Part shown: in pieces, positions 17,589-26,850 of the stretch
How the letters are laid out: each line of letters starts with the position of its first letter
How positions within the stretch are numbered: position 1 is the stretch's first letter
DNA from: a virus
Strand: one strand, 5' to 3'
Length of the DNA stretch: 64,000 nucleotides
Virus record (IMG/VR): IMGVR_UViG_3300035665_003403
Coordinates: 84,825 to 148,824 of that record
Notes under the pieces: generated by a model
Seen by the model: the letters and a program-made list of their open reading frames with translations, nothing else
Databases searched by the model: none
Told to the model about the DNA's origin: nothing
Program-made: the position numbers and the translations under genes

Positions 17589-18989
17589 ATGGTAATAAGA
17601 ACATTCTTCAGTAAGAATAACACTATAATTAATAACAGAAACATCAATACTGGAAGAAATCCGATAGTTGAATTATATTTTGGAGGTACTGATGCTACAA
17701 ACACATTTAGTAGATTCATATTTAATTTTGACGTAGAGCGACTTAAATCACTTTATACTGGTAATACATTCACTGACCTAACTAAATTAACACACACACT
17801 TAAATTAACCAATACGGGTTCTTTTGATACAGGTCTTTTAAATGGTAATTTCCAAGAAAAAAATAGAGCATCGTCTTTTGATTTAATTCTATTTAAGATA
17901 CAACAAGATTGGGATGAAGGTGTTGGTTATGATTATGGGACATCAACACCAATATTAGGTGAAAACCCAACTTCAGTTATCCCATCAAATTGGGAACAAG
18001 CACAAACAGGTGTGTTTTGGTCTGGTGGTACGGGTGTTTATTCTGGCTCACCAAGTGGAATTACAATAACAACACAACACTTCGATTTAGGTAATGAAAA
18101 TATTAATATGGATATCACTGACTATATCAATGGTGTTATTACTGGAAATACACATCATGGTTTAGGAATTGCATTTCCTAGAGGTACTGAATTAACTCAA
18201 ACTTCATCACCTAATTATGTTGGATTCTTCACCAGACATACCCAAACATTTTATGAACCGTATATTGAAACAATTTATTCTAATCACATAACGGATGACA
18301 GAGATGATTTCTATTTAGATAAAAGAAATAAATTATACCTATACGTCAATTTATTGGGTACACCAACTAATTTAGATTCATTACCAACAGTTTCAATATA
18401 TGATAATAACGATACATTACTTATTTCAGGAAACACCGTAACTCACATTACCAAGGGTGTATACGCAACAGAATTAACAATATATAGCTCAGCTTCAACA
18501 ATAAATGATATCTATACTGATAGATGGAGCAACATAGTCATCAACGGCATTCAAAGACCATCAATTGATTTATCTTTTTCTTTAAAAGATAGCTTAGGTT
18601 ATTATAATATTGGTGATAACAACATGCTTCCAAAAGAAGTATCTATTATTGTGTCTGGAATAAAAAGTAACGAAAGAATAAAACGTGGTGACACTAGAAA
18701 AGTAATCCTATTAACTAAGATACCATACACTGTAAACCAAACTCAGAAAATAGATTCTATAGAATATAGACTTTTCGTTAAAGAAGGTAACAATGAAATA
18801 ACTGTAATAGATTATCAACCAGTTGAATTGGCTAATAATCACTATTATTTCTTATTGGATACACAAAGTTTAATTCCTAATACTTATTACATTGAATTTA
18901 AAGTGGAAACCAATCTTGTGGTTAAGACATTGAATAATGTGTTTCAATTTGAAATAACAAGCCAATCATTATCCAGAAACTCACAATGA
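17589..18989 (+). CDS. Virion structural protein (DNRLRE/CBM-like plus Ig-like domains)
   Basis: SRFIFNFD, QDWDEGVG, MDITDYI; T/G-rich; TATTTAT at 17566-17572. Confidence 0.6.
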   Translation: MVIRTFFSKNNTIINNRNINTGRNPIVELYFGGTDATNTFSRFIFNFDVERLKSLYTGNTFTDLTKLTHTLKLTNTGSFDTGLLNGNFQEKNRASSFDLILFKIQQDWDEGVGYDYGTSTPILGENPTSVIPSNWEQAQTGVFWSGGTGVYSGSPSGITITTQHFDLGNENINMDITDYINGVITGNTHHGLGIAFPRGTELTQTSSPNYVGFFTRHTQTFYEPYIETIYSNHITDDRDDFYLDKRNKLYLYVNLLGTPTNLDSLPTVSIYDNNDTLLISGNTVTHITKGVYATELTIYSSASTINDIYTDRWSNIVINGIQRPSIDLSFSLKDSLGYYNIGDNNMLPKEVSIIVSGIKSNERIKRGDTRKVILLTKIPYTVNQTQKIDSIEYRLFVKEGNNEITVIDYQPVELANNHYYFLLDTQSLIPNTYYIEFKVETNLVVKTLNNVFQFEITSQSLSRNSQ

Positions 18990-19165
18990 TAAACTCAATT
19001 AAAATTCTATTCATACTAACAATTCTATTATTTACACCATCATATTGTGGTAAGAAAAAACAAGAAAGAAAAGTCAAAAAAAATTATGAATATGATATCA
19101 AAAAACAAATCAAGAAGCATAATCAACCAAAAAGAAAAGTTATTGAGAAAAAAATAACTATTTGA
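18986..19165 (+). CDS. Small secreted/lipoprotein-like basic protein (59 aa, not in ORF track)
   Basis: MINSIKILFILTILLFTPSYCGKKKQERK...; ATGA overlap with the upstream stop. Confidence 0.5.
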   Translation: MINSIKILFILTILLFTPSYCGKKKQERKVKKNYEYDIKKQIKKHNQPKRKVIEKKITI

Positions 19166-19201
19166 TGTTGACTATTTTTTAAATTAGTTTATATTTATTT
19201 C

Positions 19202-19281
19202 TGTACATTAACAAATACCCTATCGGTTTTGAGCCTTAATAAGCTTTAGAAATGTGATTTATTGCATTGAAGAAATCGGTA
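19202..19281 (+). ncRNA. Structured 5' leader (three-way junction) plus 5' arm of a long-range stem
   Basis: P1 19221-19230/19272-19281 (10 bp, 3 G-U), P2 19231-19246, P3 19251-19257/19262-19268; 19202-19216 pairs with 20076-20090. Confidence 0.6.
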
Positions 19282-19309
19282 AAATAACAAAAAATTAAAA
19301 ACGTTAAAA

Positions 19310-20068
19310 ATGTATTACAACAAAACAATTGAGCTTAACCAAGCTCCAAGTGTTAATCTATGTATTAACAAATCTAGATTAAAAATCTACAACAAAAATA
19401 ATTATTACCTTAAAGATGGTACCGAATTCAGCATTGAATTATTCAACCCTCTACGAGAATCGATTCTATGTAAGATTTACTTAAACGGTAAATCAATATC
19501 ATATAGCGGTCTTGTCCTTAAACCAGGACAAAGAGTTTTTCTAGAAAGATTCATTGATTCACCTAAGAAATTCTTATTTGAAACTTACGAAGTGGATAAT
19601 AACTCAACAACCAAAAATGCTATTGCTGAAAATGGTGATTTAAGTGTTGAGTTTTATTTGGAATCTAAACCAATCGTAGATAAGTGGTATTCTTATTCAT
19701 CATATATTGACCTGTCGAACTACAATTCTGGAACCCCATTTAATTTATATAATTCTAATATTGGAACTGGTAGTTTAAATTCTGGTTCTTATGGTAGTGT
19801 CGTATCAACCAATTACTGTTCAAACGTAAACTCAAATAAAATAGAAACTGGTAGAATTGAAGAAGGTTCTAACTCTAATCAAAAATTTGTTTCATCAAAT
19901 CAAAGTTTTGATATACTTCCATTCAATCTTCAATCATTTAAATTACTTCCATTAGAATCAAAATTTGTTACTTTGAAAGACACATTTGTTAAGCAATATT
20001 GTGTAAATTGTGGACATAAATTGAAACACACATATAAGTTTTGCCCATCATGCTCAACTAAAGTATAA
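19310..20068 (+). CDS. Beta-rich domain plus C-terminal zinc-ribbon protein
   Basis: YCVNCG...FCPSC at the C-terminus; FSIELFNP..., GLVLKPGQRVFLERF, IETGRIEEGS. Confidence 0.8.
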   Translation: MYYNKTIELNQAPSVNLCINKSRLKIYNKNNYYLKDGTEFSIELFNPLRESILCKIYLNGKSISYSGLVLKPGQRVFLERFIDSPKKFLFETYEVDNNSTTKNAIAENGDLSVEFYLESKPIVDKWYSYSSYIDLSNYNSGTPFNLYNSNIGTGSLNSGSYGSVVSTNYCSNVNSNKIETGRIEEGSNSNQKFVSSNQSFDILPFNLQSFKLLPLESKFVTLKDTFVKQYCVNCGHKLKHTYKFCPSCSTKV

Positions 20069-20091
20069 TCATAAAATTTGTTAATGTATAT

Positions 20092-20129
20092 AAAAAAAGC
20101 GTAGAAAAACTCTACGCTTTTTTTATTTT
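20092..20129 (+). terminator. Intrinsic terminator (bidirectional-looking)
   Basis: AAAAAAAGCGTAGA-AAAAC-TCTACGCTTTTTTT. Confidence 0.85.
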
Positions 20130-20154
20130 TAGTAAGTTTGTTAAAAAAATTATT

Positions 20155-20319
20155 ATGTTATTAGCCCAAACTCAAGATACAATCGATTCTACATTAGAAA
20201 CCCTTGTTAATTCAAATTATTTAGAAATTATCAAAAACTTAGTTAACGATATTCACAATGATACCGACTTAGGTTTCGAAGTTAGAAAATTAATAAGTGA
20301 TTTGACTAGTGGGTCTTAA
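20155..20319 (+). CDS. Small hypothetical protein (54 aa, not in ORF track)
   Basis: MLLAQTQ...HNDTDLGFEVRKLISDLTSGS*; TAAGTTTG box at 20133-20140. Confidence 0.5.
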   Translation: MLLAQTQDTIDSTLETLVNSNYLEIIKNLVNDIHNDTDLGFEVRKLISDLTSGS

Positions 20320-20637
20320 CAATAATTTATAGCAGTTATTACCTAAGCTATCTATATCGTTTTTCCACTTGAATCCCAAGTCCATTTCTCCTTCGCTAGG
20401 TAACATAAAATTAGCGTTACCATATTCAGTTATGGTTCTATTTACGAAATCATCTAGCTTTGCTATATCTTCTTGTTCTAATCCACTATCATCTCCATTT
20501 ATTAATGAAGATATAGCCCATTCTGGGATAGTAAACTCAAGGATGTCATCCATTTCTTCACCTCTTTCTTTAAGGTAAGTATTTTCAGCTATTATATTAG
20601 CTTTTTTCATTGTTTTAAATCTGTCTTTGCTTCTCAT
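20290..20637 (-). CDS. Hypothetical late protein (start revised to 20637)
   Basis: TATTTAT (20642-20648, -) lies 4 nt before ATG of MRSKDRF; IPEWA...LINGDDSGL domain. Confidence 0.65.
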   Translation of the reverse strand: MRSKDRFKTMKKANIIAENTYLKERGEEMDDILEFTIPEWAISSLINGDDSGLEQEDIAKLDDFVNRTITEYGNANFMLPSEGEMDLGFKWKNDIDSLGNNCYKLLLRPTSQITY

Positions 20638-20650
20638 ATTAATAAATATA

Positions 20651-21796
20651 TCAATCAATCTCATTAGTCTTGGAAAAATGAGTCAATGACTCCTTTCCAT
20701 CATCAGTCTTAAGCCATTCTTTATAGTTTTTCTTATCTTCCTTAGATAATTTGCTAACTAATCTCTTTCTATCATCGTCATCACCAATTGGTGATAATTC
20801 ACCCTTTGGACTATCATAATGTTGAAATAGACCTGTACGTAACATTTCTAAATATCTTTTTCCTCTAGCTGATTTTGATTTTAATTCTTCTTCTATCATT
20901 TTTTTATGCTTCATTTCATCAACAATATCTTGAGCCTGAGAATCCCACTTAACTATTATTTCAGTACCAAAAAACTCATCTTTCTGTTTATGGTCTGATA
21001 CTCTTATTTTGGGTTCAATAATATAAAATGAATTTGTACTATTAGAATATCTTATTTTAAAACCTTTTTCACTTAACCATTTAGCTATATATTTTATTTT
21101 TACACCAGTTAATATGTTTACAAAAGAACCTATAGAGTGTGAACCCTTATTTTTTGGATAATTTTGAAAGGCTCTTAAATTTAGCTTTTTACCACCAGAT
21201 AACGTTGTAAATTCAAACTTTAAATTAGGGAAGAACTTTTTACCCTCATCAAATAATTTTTTCATAAATTCTTCATCAGGAATACCATCAGTCTCTTCAT
21301 TTAAACTTGTATTTTTAACCTGGTTAAATACACATCTATGGAAATCATCATAACTTAAATCACCACCCAATACTATAATTGGATTTTGTTTTATTGTTAG
21401 TTCCACATTAAGTGGCTTATTAAGCGTTTTCGCTGCGTAATAGCGATGATGTCCATCTTCAATGTAAAAAGCCCCATTCTCATATGTAACCTCTATAGGT
21501 TCGCTTAAATCAACCTTTTTTGACCATGTTTTCTTAGCGGTACCTAAACCCAATCCTGTTTTCTTTGCAAAATGTTCGATTTCGTGAAGAACATTAAGAT
21601 AATCATCCTTCCATTTAACCTTTAATTTATCTGGTGTAATGGTCTTTATGTCATCAAATGAAAAACCATAAGCTGCTCTATCCAAAGCTTCAATAGATAT
21701 ACCACCAGAACGTAATAATTCTTCAGATGTATTAAATTTATATACCTCATCAATTATTTCTTGTGTTATTTTTATTGGGTTACATTTATTAATCAT
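20651..21796 (-). CDS. Multidomain protein with ParB/Srx-like domain
   Basis: PIEVTYENGAFYIEDGHHRYYAA; later IRVSDH module; SLNE and MIEE junctions. Confidence 0.7.
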   Translation of the reverse strand: MINKCNPIKITQEIIDEVYKFNTSEELLRSGGISIEALDRAAYGFSFDDIKTITPDKLKVKWKDDYLNVLHEIEHFAKKTGLGLGTAKKTWSKKVDLSEPIEVTYENGAFYIEDGHHRYYAAKTLNKPLNVELTIKQNPIIVLGGDLSYDDFHRCVFNQVKNTSLNEETDGIPDEEFMKKLFDEGKKFFPNLKFEFTTLSGGKKLNLRAFQNYPKNKGSHSIGSFVNILTGVKIKYIAKWLSEKGFKIRYSNSTNSFYIIEPKIRVSDHKQKDEFFGTEIIVKWDSQAQDIVDEMKHKKMIEEELKSKSARGKRYLEMLRTGLFQHYDSPKGELSPIGDDDDRKRLVSKLSKEDKKNYKEWLKTDDGKESLTHFSKTNEID

Positions 21797-23156: not shown

Positions 23157-24851
23157 TTAATCAACAATAAACTCATATTTAAATAATCCACAATCCCATA
23201 TCCTATCATAACCTAATTCGGTCATCAATTGCTTCTCAGACTTACTAAAATCCAAATGAGGAAACTTCTTTTTTAAAGAATTCTTCCCAAATCCAAATTT
23301 ATGTAGTCTCTTGGTTCTAGATATACTAGAATTGAAATACCTATAATCTGGACCTAATATTTTAACACATTTAAACCCAATCGATAAATACATGTTTTTA
23401 TTTCCATCAATCCAACGCACATCACCAAATGATATAATTTTTTCTGGTTGATATAGTTTTATGAAATGCTTCATTAATTTATTAGCTATACCAGTAATCT
23501 TATATTCATTCGTTGTAGCGAATCTACTCAAATCATAAACACCATCTACCTTACCAGAATTCATTCCTCTAACACCATTAAATGTCATAATAGCAACTAA
23601 TTTATTATCAAAGAAAGCACCTAAACATATATTGGTCGCATCATTACCCTGGATATGGTATTTCTTTAAAAATTCCTTCTTAGATTCTAAATCAACTTCC
23701 CTAATATCACATTTCCTAGCACCTATATTTTTATTCTTATTCACCCCAAGTATATAGTCTATTTTATTAAGCACCAACTCTCTATTATTAACCCATTCAT
23801 CTTCAAATATATGAATTAATCGATACCCAATACTATTCATTAGCTTTGTTTTTGTTAGATGAAATTGCCTATCCTTACCAAATTTTTCACTATGATAATA
23901 CAATCCATTATATTCTATACCTAATTTTAGGTCATCTATTAATATATCAATCTCAACCCCTGATAATAATTTTTTATCATTCATCTTAACAGTAAATCCC
24001 AATTCGGCAATATGATTATAAATTTCTATTTGAGCTTTACTGGAAAATACGTTTTCATGTAATCTTAACCCATTATCATATCTAACCCTTAACTCATCTT
24101 TGTATCTATTTGAAAGAATCTTATCATTAGGATACTTTATCCTATATTCAAATAATGTAATACCATGTTTATTCAAATGCTTAGCACCCAAATATCTAAG
24201 TTTTTTACCACAAATATTACAAATAACGTGATTATCCTCTAACAACAAATCCTTATTCTTTATATAATTCTTATGAAATACAATATCCTCTGGGAACCTA
24301 ACCAAATAATCATTTAAACCAATCTCATGTTTAATTAAATGATTCTCAAAACACCCAGTCCTATTATCAACATCACTCGTAACCCAATTACATAATTTAC
24401 ATTTCCTAGTCAAGGTCTCTTCAACTTCAATTATATCAAAATATTCCTCAAACCATTTTTTACCATACTCTAACTCATACTTCTTTCGTTGATATGTGTT
24501 GTTTGGTATGGGTACATCACCATATGTCTTTATAATATGATTAGTTAAAACCCCAGATAAATTATTTGGGTCGTCAAACTCTAATTTTGTTTGCTTACAA
24601 ACTGCAATGAATTTTTTACCATCACTACCAATATATTTGTTGGTCTTACTTTTTTCTATAATAACACTATTACCATCCTTGACTTGACCACCACGCTTTT
24701 TAATTGATATAAGGTTATCATTTAATATTTTGGTTATCTTCTTATGCCCCACACTAAATCTCTTTCCTAACTCATGTGTGCTGATATTTTCTGATTGATA
24801 TAATTTAATGATGGTATTTTCATCGTCCTTGGTTAATATTGTTTTACTCAT
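23157..24851 (-). CDS. Hef-like homing endonuclease (Zn fingers + PD-(D/E)xK + GNAT-like domain)
   Basis: CKLC..H..H and CNIC..H..H; EIDI...IEYNGLYYH...IHIFEDEW; FL..YHIQG, SRFAT, SFGDVRW, RIWDCG. Confidence 0.8.
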   Translation of the reverse strand: MSKTILTKDDENTIIKLYQSENISTHELGKRFSVGHKKITKILNDNLISIKKRGGQVKDGNSVIIEKSKTNKYIGSDGKKFIAVCKQTKLEFDDPNNLSGVLTNHIIKTYGDVPIPNNTYQRKKYELEYGKKWFEEYFDIIEVEETLTRKCKLCNWVTSDVDNRTGCFENHLIKHEIGLNDYLVRFPEDIVFHKNYIKNKDLLLEDNHVICNICGKKLRYLGAKHLNKHGITLFEYRIKYPNDKILSNRYKDELRVRYDNGLRLHENVFSSKAQIEIYNHIAELGFTVKMNDKKLLSGVEIDILIDDLKLGIEYNGLYYHSEKFGKDRQFHLTKTKLMNSIGYRLIHIFEDEWVNNRELVLNKIDYILGVNKNKNIGARKCDIREVDLESKKEFLKKYHIQGNDATNICLGAFFDNKLVAIMTFNGVRGMNSGKVDGVYDLSRFATTNEYKITGIANKLMKHFIKLYQPEKIISFGDVRWIDGNKNMYLSIGFKCVKILGPDYRYFNSSISRTKRLHKFGFGKNSLKKKFPHLDFSKSEKQLMTELGYDRIWDCGLFKYEFIVD

Positions 24852-24987: not shown

Positions 24988-26850
24988 TTATCTAAGTTCG
25001 TTGATGTTGAATGTTGGTACACCATCTACTCTAACATGTCCATAGAACCTGTTATTTACAAGCTTCTTCGCGTAACGTGTCATGATTCCTTTTACAGGTG
25101 CGAAGTTAAATGGATTATACATTGTTGGAGTCAATTGCATTGGTACGTAAGGAGCATAGATATATCCTGTATCCAATAATGATTTTCCTTTATGACCAAT
25201 GATAATTGAGTAAGCTGGAGCATAAGGGTCACGATACACTTGGTAACGTCCACTTAAAGAACCAATTCTTTCAATACCCATGTTATAAGTATCTTGTTCT
25301 GGAGATGCATCAGATACGTGGAAATATTCCAAGTTATCGAATATCGCAGAGATTTCAGAAGAAACTACGATGAAGTTAGCACCACCTCTAAGAGTTGCTT
25401 TATGGATTTGAGCAGAAACTTGGTTTACACGAGTAATAAGTTCTTGGTTCCAGTCCTTTTGAGTATATGGGTTAGCAGCACTTGAAGATTTTCTCCAACC
25501 GTTATAATCCCATCTCAACTGCCATGCAGCACCTTTACGTAAATCTCTAAGGATTTCACGGTCAATTTCAGCAGCTACTTGTTCTGATAACATTGCAGTT
25601 AATTCAGCTTCAGCATCGATGTTGTGGAATGCACTAACGTCTTGAGCCAATTCTGGTGACCATGTTGCACGTAATTTTCTTTCTTCAACAGAAACAGTTA
25701 CTTCATCCAATGAGAATGATACTTCACCCATTTCAGTTTCAAGTTCTAATGATGCGTATTGTGCCCAAGCAACAGTAAACGATGCTCCAGATACACCAGC
25801 AGAAGCTGTAGCTAAATTAGCAGGTGCAGAACTATTGTTTACAAAGAATGCAGTAGTTCGTCCAGTTGCACCAACATAACCATCAAATGTAGCAGTACCA
25901 TTAGCAGGTACTGGACCACTTAAGTCAAGACCTAAGTACAAAGTACCAGTTGCGTCAGTTAAGTTAGAATAGTTAACAATACCTTTACCATATTGTTGAG
26001 TTACAACTCTAAAAGGAATTTCCTTATTAGCATCAATAATTGTGTTATTATTCGGGTCACGAATAACACCATTAGAGATTACGTGCAATGAAGCCAAGAA
26101 AGATTCAGTATCCATTTGGTTACCATCAGCACCAGTCAAAACTGATTTGTTAGTTGCACCTGGAGTAAATCCCGTTACACCAATAACAACTTGTCTAACT
26201 GTACCATCAGTTGCAAGTGGTTGTGTACCACCGTTAGCAATAGCCGTATAAGTACCATTTGAATCTAAAGTCCAGCTGTTATATCCACCAGTAACGATTG
26301 TAAGAGTACCTTTTGAGTTATCAAACAAACCATCATTGTAGAATGCATCATACAAGTTTTTAGCTTGCATTTGAGTTATAGCACAATTAGCAGTGTTAAC
26401 ACAACTTGGAATACCTGTTGAGGCAAAACTAGTGTGAGCTGAATATGTTGTACCATAAACATCAGAAGATGATGTGGTTGTATAATCATTACCAGCAACA
26501 CCAGCACCGTCTACACGAGAAGATGTTTGTGGTATGAAATAAAACAATTTACCAATTGGTAAGTTCATAGCTTGAACTGAAACTAAGTCATTAGCCAAAA
26601 GCTTAGAGAATACTCTACGTACAATTGGGAAAACAACAGTTTCGAATGAACCTGAATTAGTTGCTGTAGTTGTTTCTTTCAACAACGATGTTGCTTGGTT
26701 TTCAAAAAGAATCGCAACGTTTTCTCTGATGTGTCCTTTAAGACCATCTAGGAACCCTATTGATTCCCATTTTTCTTGTGTTTCTTTACGGACAGCTTTC
26801 ATATGGTCTAAACCAATATTTCCAACTAATCCTGAATTTAATATCGACAT
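24988..26850 (-). CDS. Major capsid protein (T4 gp23-like)
   Basis: LFENQ, PIVRRVF..L.ANDLVSVQAM..P.G, RKLRATWSPELAQD, EIDREI, YAPYVP, GIMTRY. Confidence 0.97.
   Translation of the reverse strand: MSILNSGLVGNIGLDHMKAVRKETQEKWESIGFLDGLKGHIRENVAILFENQATSLLKETTTATNSGSFETVVFPIVRRVFSKLLANDLVSVQAMNLPIGKLFYFIPQTSSRVDGAGVAGNDYTTTSSSDVYGTTYSAHTSFASTGIPSCVNTANCAITQMQAKNLYDAFYNDGLFDNSKGTLTIVTGGYNSWTLDSNGTYTAIANGGTQPLATDGTVRQVVIGVTGFTPGATNKSVLTGADGNQMDTESFLASLHVISNGVIRDPNNNTIIDANKEIPFRVVTQQYGKGIVNYSNLTDATGTLYLGLDLSGPVPANGTATFDGYVGATGRTTAFFVNNSSAPANLATASAGVSGASFTVAWAQYASLELETEMGEVSFSLDEVTVSVEERKLRATWSPELAQDVSAFHNIDAEAELTAMLSEQVAAEIDREILRDLRKGAAWQLRWDYNGWRKSSSAANPYTQKDWNQELITRVNQVSAQIHKATLRGGANFIVVSSEISAIFDNLEYFHVSDASPEQDTYNMGIERIGSLSGRYQVYRDPYAPAYSIIIGHKGKSLLDTGYIYAPYVPMQLTPTMYNPFNFAPVKGIMTRYAKKLVNNRFYGHVRVDGVPTFNINELR

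Follow-up and report, generated by a model that had tools for sequence, protein, structure and literature searches.

Why should the two ends of a one-gene message from a very large bacteriophage be complementary to each other? The question is raised by a 64-kb stretch of DNA (the window), bases 84825–148824 of the 148.8-kb IMG/VR virus record IMGVR_UViG_3300035665_003403, in which a coding sequence for a 252-residue protein (window positions 19310–20068, on the plus strand, as are the promoter, arms, leader and terminator described here) is flanked by a pair of short inverted repeats. A first-pass annotation of the letters alone had proposed that these repeats close a self-contained transcript as a base-paired panhandle, and had offered as possible roles an RNase III or stabilizing stem, a retron-like arm pair and an RNA bound or packaged by its own protein. 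By comparing the locus with its homologs, we find, with high confidence, that the end helix is a real RNA structure maintained by selection. The fold is of a rarely documented kind; its purpose we infer, and we advance with more modest confidence the explanation that a conserved helix closes a monocistronic phage mRNA and protects its ends.

The gene forms a transcription unit of its own, with one arm just inside the promoter and the other just inside the terminator. A consensus scan places the promoter at 19168–19198, with a −35-like TTGACT (19168–19173), a 16-nt spacer and a TATATTTAT box (19190–19198); the same site was picked up as a promoter-like TTGACT-N16-TATATT at 19168–19195, with TATTTAT at 19192–19198. 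The intrinsic terminator (20090–20133) consists of an A-tract, a GC core in which GCGTAGA (20099–20105) pairs with TCTACGC (20111–20117), and a T-run; a terminator scan returned the hairpin at 20090–20126 and, because it is symmetric, the terminator is probably bidirectional. Both signals that the first-pass annotation had assigned to the unit are recovered. The 5′ arm, TGTACATTAACAAAT (19202–19216), begins 3 nt past the promoter box, close to where transcription is predicted to start, and the 3′ arm, ATTTGTTAATGTATA (20076–20090), begins 7 nt after the stop codon. As had been described, the arms form 13 perfect pairs (19204–19216 with 20076–20088), extended to 15 by the single G–U pair G19203–U20089 and one further A–U pair. 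The 13-mer TACATTAACAAAT occurs exactly twice in the window, at 19204–19216 on the plus strand and at 20076–20088 on the minus strand. With TATATT taken as the −10 hexamer, transcription would usually start about 5 nt past the 8-nt box (TATATTTA), and the arm starts 3–4 nt past that box; the arm start is thus so near the predicted transcription start that the 5′-terminal base would itself be paired. When the RNA from 19202 to 20129 is folded with RNAfold, the minimum free energy and centroid structures both close it with the end helix, placing the terminator hairpin directly 3′, and the fold has a z-score of −5.0 against shuffled sequences. The promoter is the window's only TTGAC-N16–18-TATWTT site adjoining a TATATTTAT box. 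The remaining 13 such boxes lack a TTGAC −35 element and lie 7–25 nt before their start codons, and the full σ70-like promoter of this gene hints at a different expression class or timing.

An inverted repeat of 13 bp is, by itself, no more than chance in a genome with 29% G+C. At spacings of 200–2,000 nt, the record contains 39 perfect inverted matches of 13-mers, which reduce to about 25 distinct pairs, and by our own arithmetic base composition predicts roughly 27. The placement of this repeat is exceptional. When the 125 nt upstream and the 40 nt downstream of each of the 161 open reading frames (ORFs) of at least 80 residues in the record were scored for complementarity between untranslated regions (UTRs), this gene came out best, with a score of 15.5 (next best 11.5, median 7). 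Three more perfect 13-bp inverted pairs, possibly chance occurrences, lie near the same 3 kb (18587–21353), at 18587/20341, 18938/20018 and 19633/21353.

The homologs carry the case. Loci were drawn from viral (80) and metagenome (80) sets, locus L003 and six GenBank phage loci; the counts refer to 117 non-redundant homologous loci of uncultured huge phages. An ungapped helix of at least 9 bp is found at the same two positions in 90–93 of the 117, mostly 10–12 bp long (range 9–17) and with a median duplex energy of −15.6 kcal/mol. The first-pass annotation had named a lack of end-pairing in homolog flanks as what would overturn its proposal; the count comes down in its favour, and with it the idea of a self-contained one-gene unit whose extreme ends pair as RNA through covarying arms. 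The layout of the flanks is near-universal: a TATATTTAT box, in 87 loci as part of the promoter consensus CTTGACA-N16-TATATTTAT, is followed 3–4 nt on by the 5′ arm, commonly ACGTTAACTC, and its common complement GAGTTAACGT lies between stop codon and terminator, usually 8–13 nt from the former and 0–5 nt from the terminator stem. Within this layout the arms themselves change. The helix-keeping loci contain 72 distinct arm pairs, including arms that are unrelated in sequence yet exactly complementary to their partners (ATCGTGATTGA/TCAATCACGAT, TGTATGATTAACATT/AATGTTAATCATACA, AGAGCCTGAC/GTCAGGCTCT, GACCTTGTGGTT/AACCACAAGGTC and AGAGCCCTTC/GAAGGGCTCT); at the LR745206 locus, whose protein is only 33% identical, GCTGTTCG pairs with CGAACAGC. 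Individual helix columns switch pair type (A–U in 22 and G–C in 21 at one; C–G in 27, U–A in 14 and A–U in 2 at another). Cognate 5′ and 3′ flanks score 10.85 on average compared with 7.60 for mismatched ones, a value that 10,000 permutations never reached. On a protein tree built with FastTree, the state of the 5′ arm changes at least 32 times among helix-keeping loci, an approximate count inflated by tree error and recombination. The nearest relative (L170, 85% identical) has an identical 3′ arm; its contig is short and the 5′ arm is not readable. Over its first 55 nt or so (L170:1-55), up to the P2 loop of the leader described below, that contig is entirely different from the window, perhaps because the assembly is chimeric or because a recombination breakpoint falls within the leader.

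Between the 5′ arm and the start region, a leader of about 110 nt holds a second structured element, a three-way junction at 19221–19281 that is obtained when the leader is folded alone (P1, 19221–19230 with 19272–19281; P2, 19231–19234 with 19243–19246; P3, 19251–19257 with 19262–19268). Across 61 leader sequences, 96.1% of alignment cells pair and 18 of the 21 pairs change on both sides, which none of 500 shuffles reaches; in slid controls, pairing drops to 32–46%. Its G–U pairs are near-invariant (51–60 of the 61 sequences) and workable on the plus strand only, which fixes the strand of the leader as plus. The unpaired junction bases UUUAGAG and AAAG are highly conserved. Compared with Rfam 15, the leader has no match even at E values up to 10, the only matches being sub-threshold ones at the terminator, and no family's gathering score is reached anywhere in the unit. 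A covariance model finds a single copy in the 148.8-kb record and further copies before homologs in the LR7565xx huge phages; in the Prevotella Lak phages this model (R1) has no match at E ≤ 1. The leader is a candidate riboswitch or protein-binding element in its own right.

We propose that the two repeats are the DNA image of an RNA helix in which the first transcribed bases would pair with the 3′ UTR between stop codon and terminator. In the finished transcript, the 5′-terminal nucleotide would lie flush in a duplex abutting the terminator hairpin, and both mRNA ends would be shielded from end-dependent ribonucleases. The same pairing would keep the 5′ arm off weaker partners, one being a local hairpin that overlaps P1 and the other the region of the start codon, so that the complete message would be the stable, translatable form and incomplete or 3′-trimmed copies would not. 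End protection and stabilization is the effect that we favour, with the holding of the 5′ arm off its alternative partners as a second effect, because of the flush 5′ end and by analogy with hbs of Bacillus subtilis, in which a 14-bp interaction joining the 5′ UTR to the 3′ UTR modulates cleavage of the mRNA by RNase Y (Braun, Durand and Condon 2017, PMC5737220). With hok, hbs is the closest known system, and the phage mRNA would work in much the same way as hbs while sharing some features of hok. In hbs, as in the phage, a helix of about 14 bp connects the UTRs of a short, monocistronic mRNA of bacterial type whose leader is structured; in hbs it modulates the access of RNase Y and hence mRNA stability, a nuclease role that may, by analogy, extend to the phage message. 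The differences are that no sequence or gene homology connects the two, hbs encoding a histone-like protein of a Firmicute and the present gene belonging to a huge phage, and that in the phage the 5′ arm would begin with the first base of the transcript, the 3′ arm lies right against the terminator and the leader is a distinct three-way junction. Complementary 5′ and 3′ UTR segments and selection on their pairing are both found at this locus, which makes it a candidate for the long-range 5′/3′-UTR interactions, a class defined by function (an hbs-like mechanism) and not by homology.

Several observations weigh against this explanation. About 20–27 of the 117 loci are without the helix: one of at least 9 bp is missing from 27, some of which have a shorter or bulged one, and one clade lacks both arms; in at least six loci (L007, L017, L026, L055, L030 and L031), the TTAAC 5′ element is kept with an unrelated 3′ flank. 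Either the pairing is dispensable, therefore, or the 5′ element has another role. In the Prevotella Lak phages, inspection by eye reveals the junction leader and no convincing panhandle. Nor do G–U and A–C pairs in the end helix reveal the strand on which it acts. The helix is almost purely Watson–Crick; its internal mismatches across homologs comprise three G–U and one A–C; and in a strand-symmetric extension test, G–U pairs lengthened the helix in 10 arm pairs and A–C pairs in 20, with 41 ties. The first-pass annotation had taken the G–U extension as a sign of RNA rather than DNA pairing, an argument that this test does not bear out. None of the sequencing runs listed as containing the stretch is recorded as RNA, and the transcript ends are predicted ones.

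In the main rival, the helix would license translation upon completion, through a three-partner switch of the hok kind: on nascent or 3′-truncated RNA the 5′ arm would mask the initiation region, and the 3′ arm would act as a stronger decoy that frees the start site. The 5′ arm does have other possible partners. Its GUA (19203–19205) can pair with UAC (19216–19218) in a local hairpin, the 3′ strand of which overlaps the first two P1 pairs; among homologs this hairpin is 88.6% paired, compared with 82.8% in shuffles, and alignment columns 23 and 24 vary by transitions only, retaining wobble with fixed P1 bases. Downstream, an A-rich linker and translation start region (19282–19312; GTTAA at 19303–19307, start codon at 19310–19312) offers another partner: in the leader-only fold, 19203–19209 pairs with 19309–19315, covering the AUG, and the start region GTTAAAAATGTAT is similar in sequence to the 3′ arm GTTAATGTAT. 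The energies of arm and start region are class-specific (TTAAC, −4.2; CCTGAC, −7.0; CCTTGTGG, −6.3 kcal/mol; non-cognate combinations, −0.1 to −4.9), with cognate specificity in three of five arm classes and none of 10,000 permutations doing as well, and in the GATTGA clade the pair C31–G140 becomes U–A in the same register. The hok mRNA offers a precedent, in which a 5′ hairpin that is metastable occurs together with the pairings tac/fbi and tac/ucb (PMC9841398). These signs make the start region a suggestive alternative partner. Against a switch stand the weakness of the alternative pairing (median −5.0 kcal/mol, compared with −15.6 for the panhandle), the lack of cognate preference in two arm classes and the finding that the start region falls in the best 25% of mRNA windows in only 45 of 93 loci, about a two-fold enrichment. 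TTAA is, moreover, palindromic and its context AT-rich, which makes short matches cheap, and loci without the 3′ arm keep the 5′ element together with the start-region motif and would, in a strict version, be permanently repressed. We consider licensing of this kind unlikely. Slightly less likely still is an integrity checkpoint, in which the 5′ end would keep its own start site masked for as long as transcription of the 3′ UTR is unfinished, and again after 3′ degradation, so that only complete messages are translated; if true, the checkpoint would give viruses of prokaryotes a counterpart to the closed loop of eukaryotes, linked to a three-way-junction sensor that has not been described before. 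Messages of the hok/Sok type and the phage message both have an extreme 5′ end that pairs with the 3′ end, a pairing established by phylogenetic covariation (PMC9841398), and the phage 5′ element, like that of hok, may have metastable local and start-region partners. They differ in that hok encodes a small toxic peptide regulated by an antisense RNA whereas the phage gene encodes a 252-residue, soluble-looking protein (245–356 residues among homologs), and in that end-pairing keeps hok untranslatable, the reverse of what the energetics suggest for the phage; the two are not homologous. No overlapping antisense gene was found, as the 117 loci show no conserved minus-strand promoter box across the leader and early coding sequence in a search for TATWTTTR-type promoters only. 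Of the hok-type features, the phage locus shows end pairing, a possible local hairpin and a start-region pairing that is class-specific but weak.

We regard the remaining readings as less likely than those of end protection and licensing. The complementarity might act in DNA, with the repeats bounding a mobile cassette, serving a recombinase at an invertible segment or forming a pair of operators, and the almost perfectly Watson–Crick arms with no excess of G–U, the variable downstream neighbourhood and the common core GTTAAC, a DNA palindrome, would all suit such a role. We nevertheless read the pairing at the RNA level, because the promoter and terminator enclose the arms at close range, and not the reverse, and the arms adjoin a strand-specific structured leader; because their covariation is much freer than a protein-binding site would allow, the many changes of arm state having left complementarity intact; and because the gene is co-oriented with its conserved upstream neighbour in 63 of 63 loci, with no inversion seen, and a Pfam scan covering this ORF and seven of its neighbours turned up no transposase, recombinase or reverse transcriptase family. 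Many arms, furthermore, are not palindromic, and arms of 10–12 bp are probably too short to be homogenized by gene conversion. A DNA-level function is accordingly very improbable. The absence of a transposase noted by the first-pass annotation holds in that scan, and a transposon, miniature inverted-repeat transposable element or invertible segment was rejected on the same grounds of gene content, co-orientation and arm position. Retrons require an adjacent reverse transcriptase and a non-coding msr/msd RNA; the phage unit resembles them in having inverted repeats (a1/a2) at both transcript ends, whereas its repeats enclose a protein-coding gene and no reverse transcriptase family is among the neighbours scanned, so the suggested retron-like arms are rejected too. 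The panhandle and three-way junction could instead form a composite binding platform, possibly for the encoded zinc-ribbon protein in autoregulation or RNA recruitment: conserved unpaired junction bases are what one typically sees where a ligand or protein binds, the record has no other copy of the leader, and the 5′ arm ends 3–5 nt before P1, close enough for the two helices to stack. Yet the fold of the protein is a generic immunoglobulin (Ig)-like sandwich with a zinc ribbon that is replaced by SHOCT in related clusters, and arm sequences that vary freely fit pairing alone and not sequence-specific recognition; we judge this reading improbable. A duplex stacked on the terminator hairpin might equally be an RNase III substrate for maturation or destruction of the message, in the manner of phage T7 sites or the stems of rRNA precursors. 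In rRNA precursors the two flanks, 5′ and 3′, do pair, and the phage helix abuts the terminator stem with a gap of 0–5 nt. RNase III usually needs roughly two helical turns of double-stranded RNA, however, and the helix, at 9–17 bp and mostly 10–12 bp, falls below that length and lacks a conserved internal loop or cleavage motif; the RNase III site put forward in the first-pass annotation is for this reason set aside as a very slim prospect. Chance complementarity in an AT-rich genome, with which the abundance of 13-bp inverted repeats within 2 kb agrees, is refuted by the homolog comparison: the gene ranks first for UTR-to-UTR pairing in its genome and the helix recurs with covariation in about 90 independent loci, and we give chance practically no weight.

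To our knowledge, few bacterial mRNAs (hbs, hok/aapA-type toxins and icaR) are documented to pair their 5′ and 3′ UTRs over a long range, and each has been studied in one or a few species. The aapA mRNAs of Helicobacter pylori are said to resemble the hok-type fold-back, and in Staphylococcus aureus the 3′ UTR of icaR reportedly pairs with the 5′ UTR of its own mRNA, affecting translation and decay. The icaR 3′ UTR is said to pair with the Shine–Dalgarno region and to recruit RNase III, whereas in the phage the partner of the 3′ arm is the 5′ terminus, which precedes a structured leader. The literature searched contained no report of such an element in megaphages. The statement in the first-pass annotation that the arrangement has no described function was nonetheless too strong, as 5′/3′-UTR pairing is documented for hbs (PMC5737220) and hok (PMC9841398). 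What the phage loci add is breadth: the same architecture has been kept by compensatory evolution in about 90 distinct loci of uncultured huge phages, in a gene family of more than 1,000 members and together with an undescribed structured leader. As an experiment in mutagenesis done by nature, they are unusually rich material for studying what is gained by closing an mRNA of bacterial type, and they mark out the zinc-ribbon protein as one whose production these phages control tightly.

In its AlphaFold model, the 252-residue protein, taken from the ORF list, consists of an Ig-like β-sandwich (residues 14–118 plus a strand at 206–214), a disordered insert rich in Asn, Ser, Thr and Gly (approximately residues 123–192) and a C-terminal zinc ribbon, the Pfam zinc-ribbon matches being below curated cut-offs. 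PHROGs and NCBIfam returned nothing meaningful. There are 1,384 homologs at E ≤ 0.001, many on contigs of 200–370 kb, with relatives at about 33–38% identity in Prevotella Lak megaphages and the LR7565xx huge-phage assemblies. The Lak homologs L084 and L085 contain in-frame TAG codons, and their ORFs are complete only with TAG read-through, a pattern consistent with the alternative coding reportedly found in Lak phages. A Foldseek search of the PDB gave no match at E ≤ 0.001, and VIA-align returned generic Ig-like sandwiches only (Z up to 7.2). Fold searches otherwise matched uncharacterized proteins of phages and large eukaryotic DNA viruses; in BFVD, structures of ranavirus ICP-18, white spot syndrome virus (WSSV) wsv390-like, nudivirus and mimivirus-like proteins matched at E values of 1e-8 to 1e-4, with high root mean squared deviations owing to the flexible insert. 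Look-alike clusters in the ESM Atlas have 96–100% viral members, the exception being a single bacterial cluster that matches weakly in structure; in some clusters SHOCT takes the place of the ribbon.

The phage itself occurs in lake-water metagenomes. The record carries terminase, portal and major head genes, and because CheckV puts the completeness of the 148.8-kb record at only 44%, the full genome is probably well over 300 kb. Contigs from four lake metagenome runs, compared with the region, contained no arm variation and no informative joints. One contig from lake-metagenome run X8 joins position 19177 to 19937, skipping 759 nt, with five mismatches on one side, and may represent a relative without most of the gene or a mis-join.

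Directly upstream of the unit, on the same strand, an ORF at 17589–18989 encodes an uncharacterized protein of 466 residues that is 51–63% identical and syntenic in 63 related loci and has no Pfam, PHROG or NCBIfam match; it is a core gene of this phage group. A 59-residue ORF (18986–19165) that overlaps its end may encode a small lipoprotein, judging by eye from a signal-peptide-like start, a lipobox-like SYCG and a lysine-rich tail. Farther downstream, an ORF of 564 residues (23157–24851), which matches homing and HNH endonuclease PHROGs, adjoins the gene for the major head protein (24988–26850).

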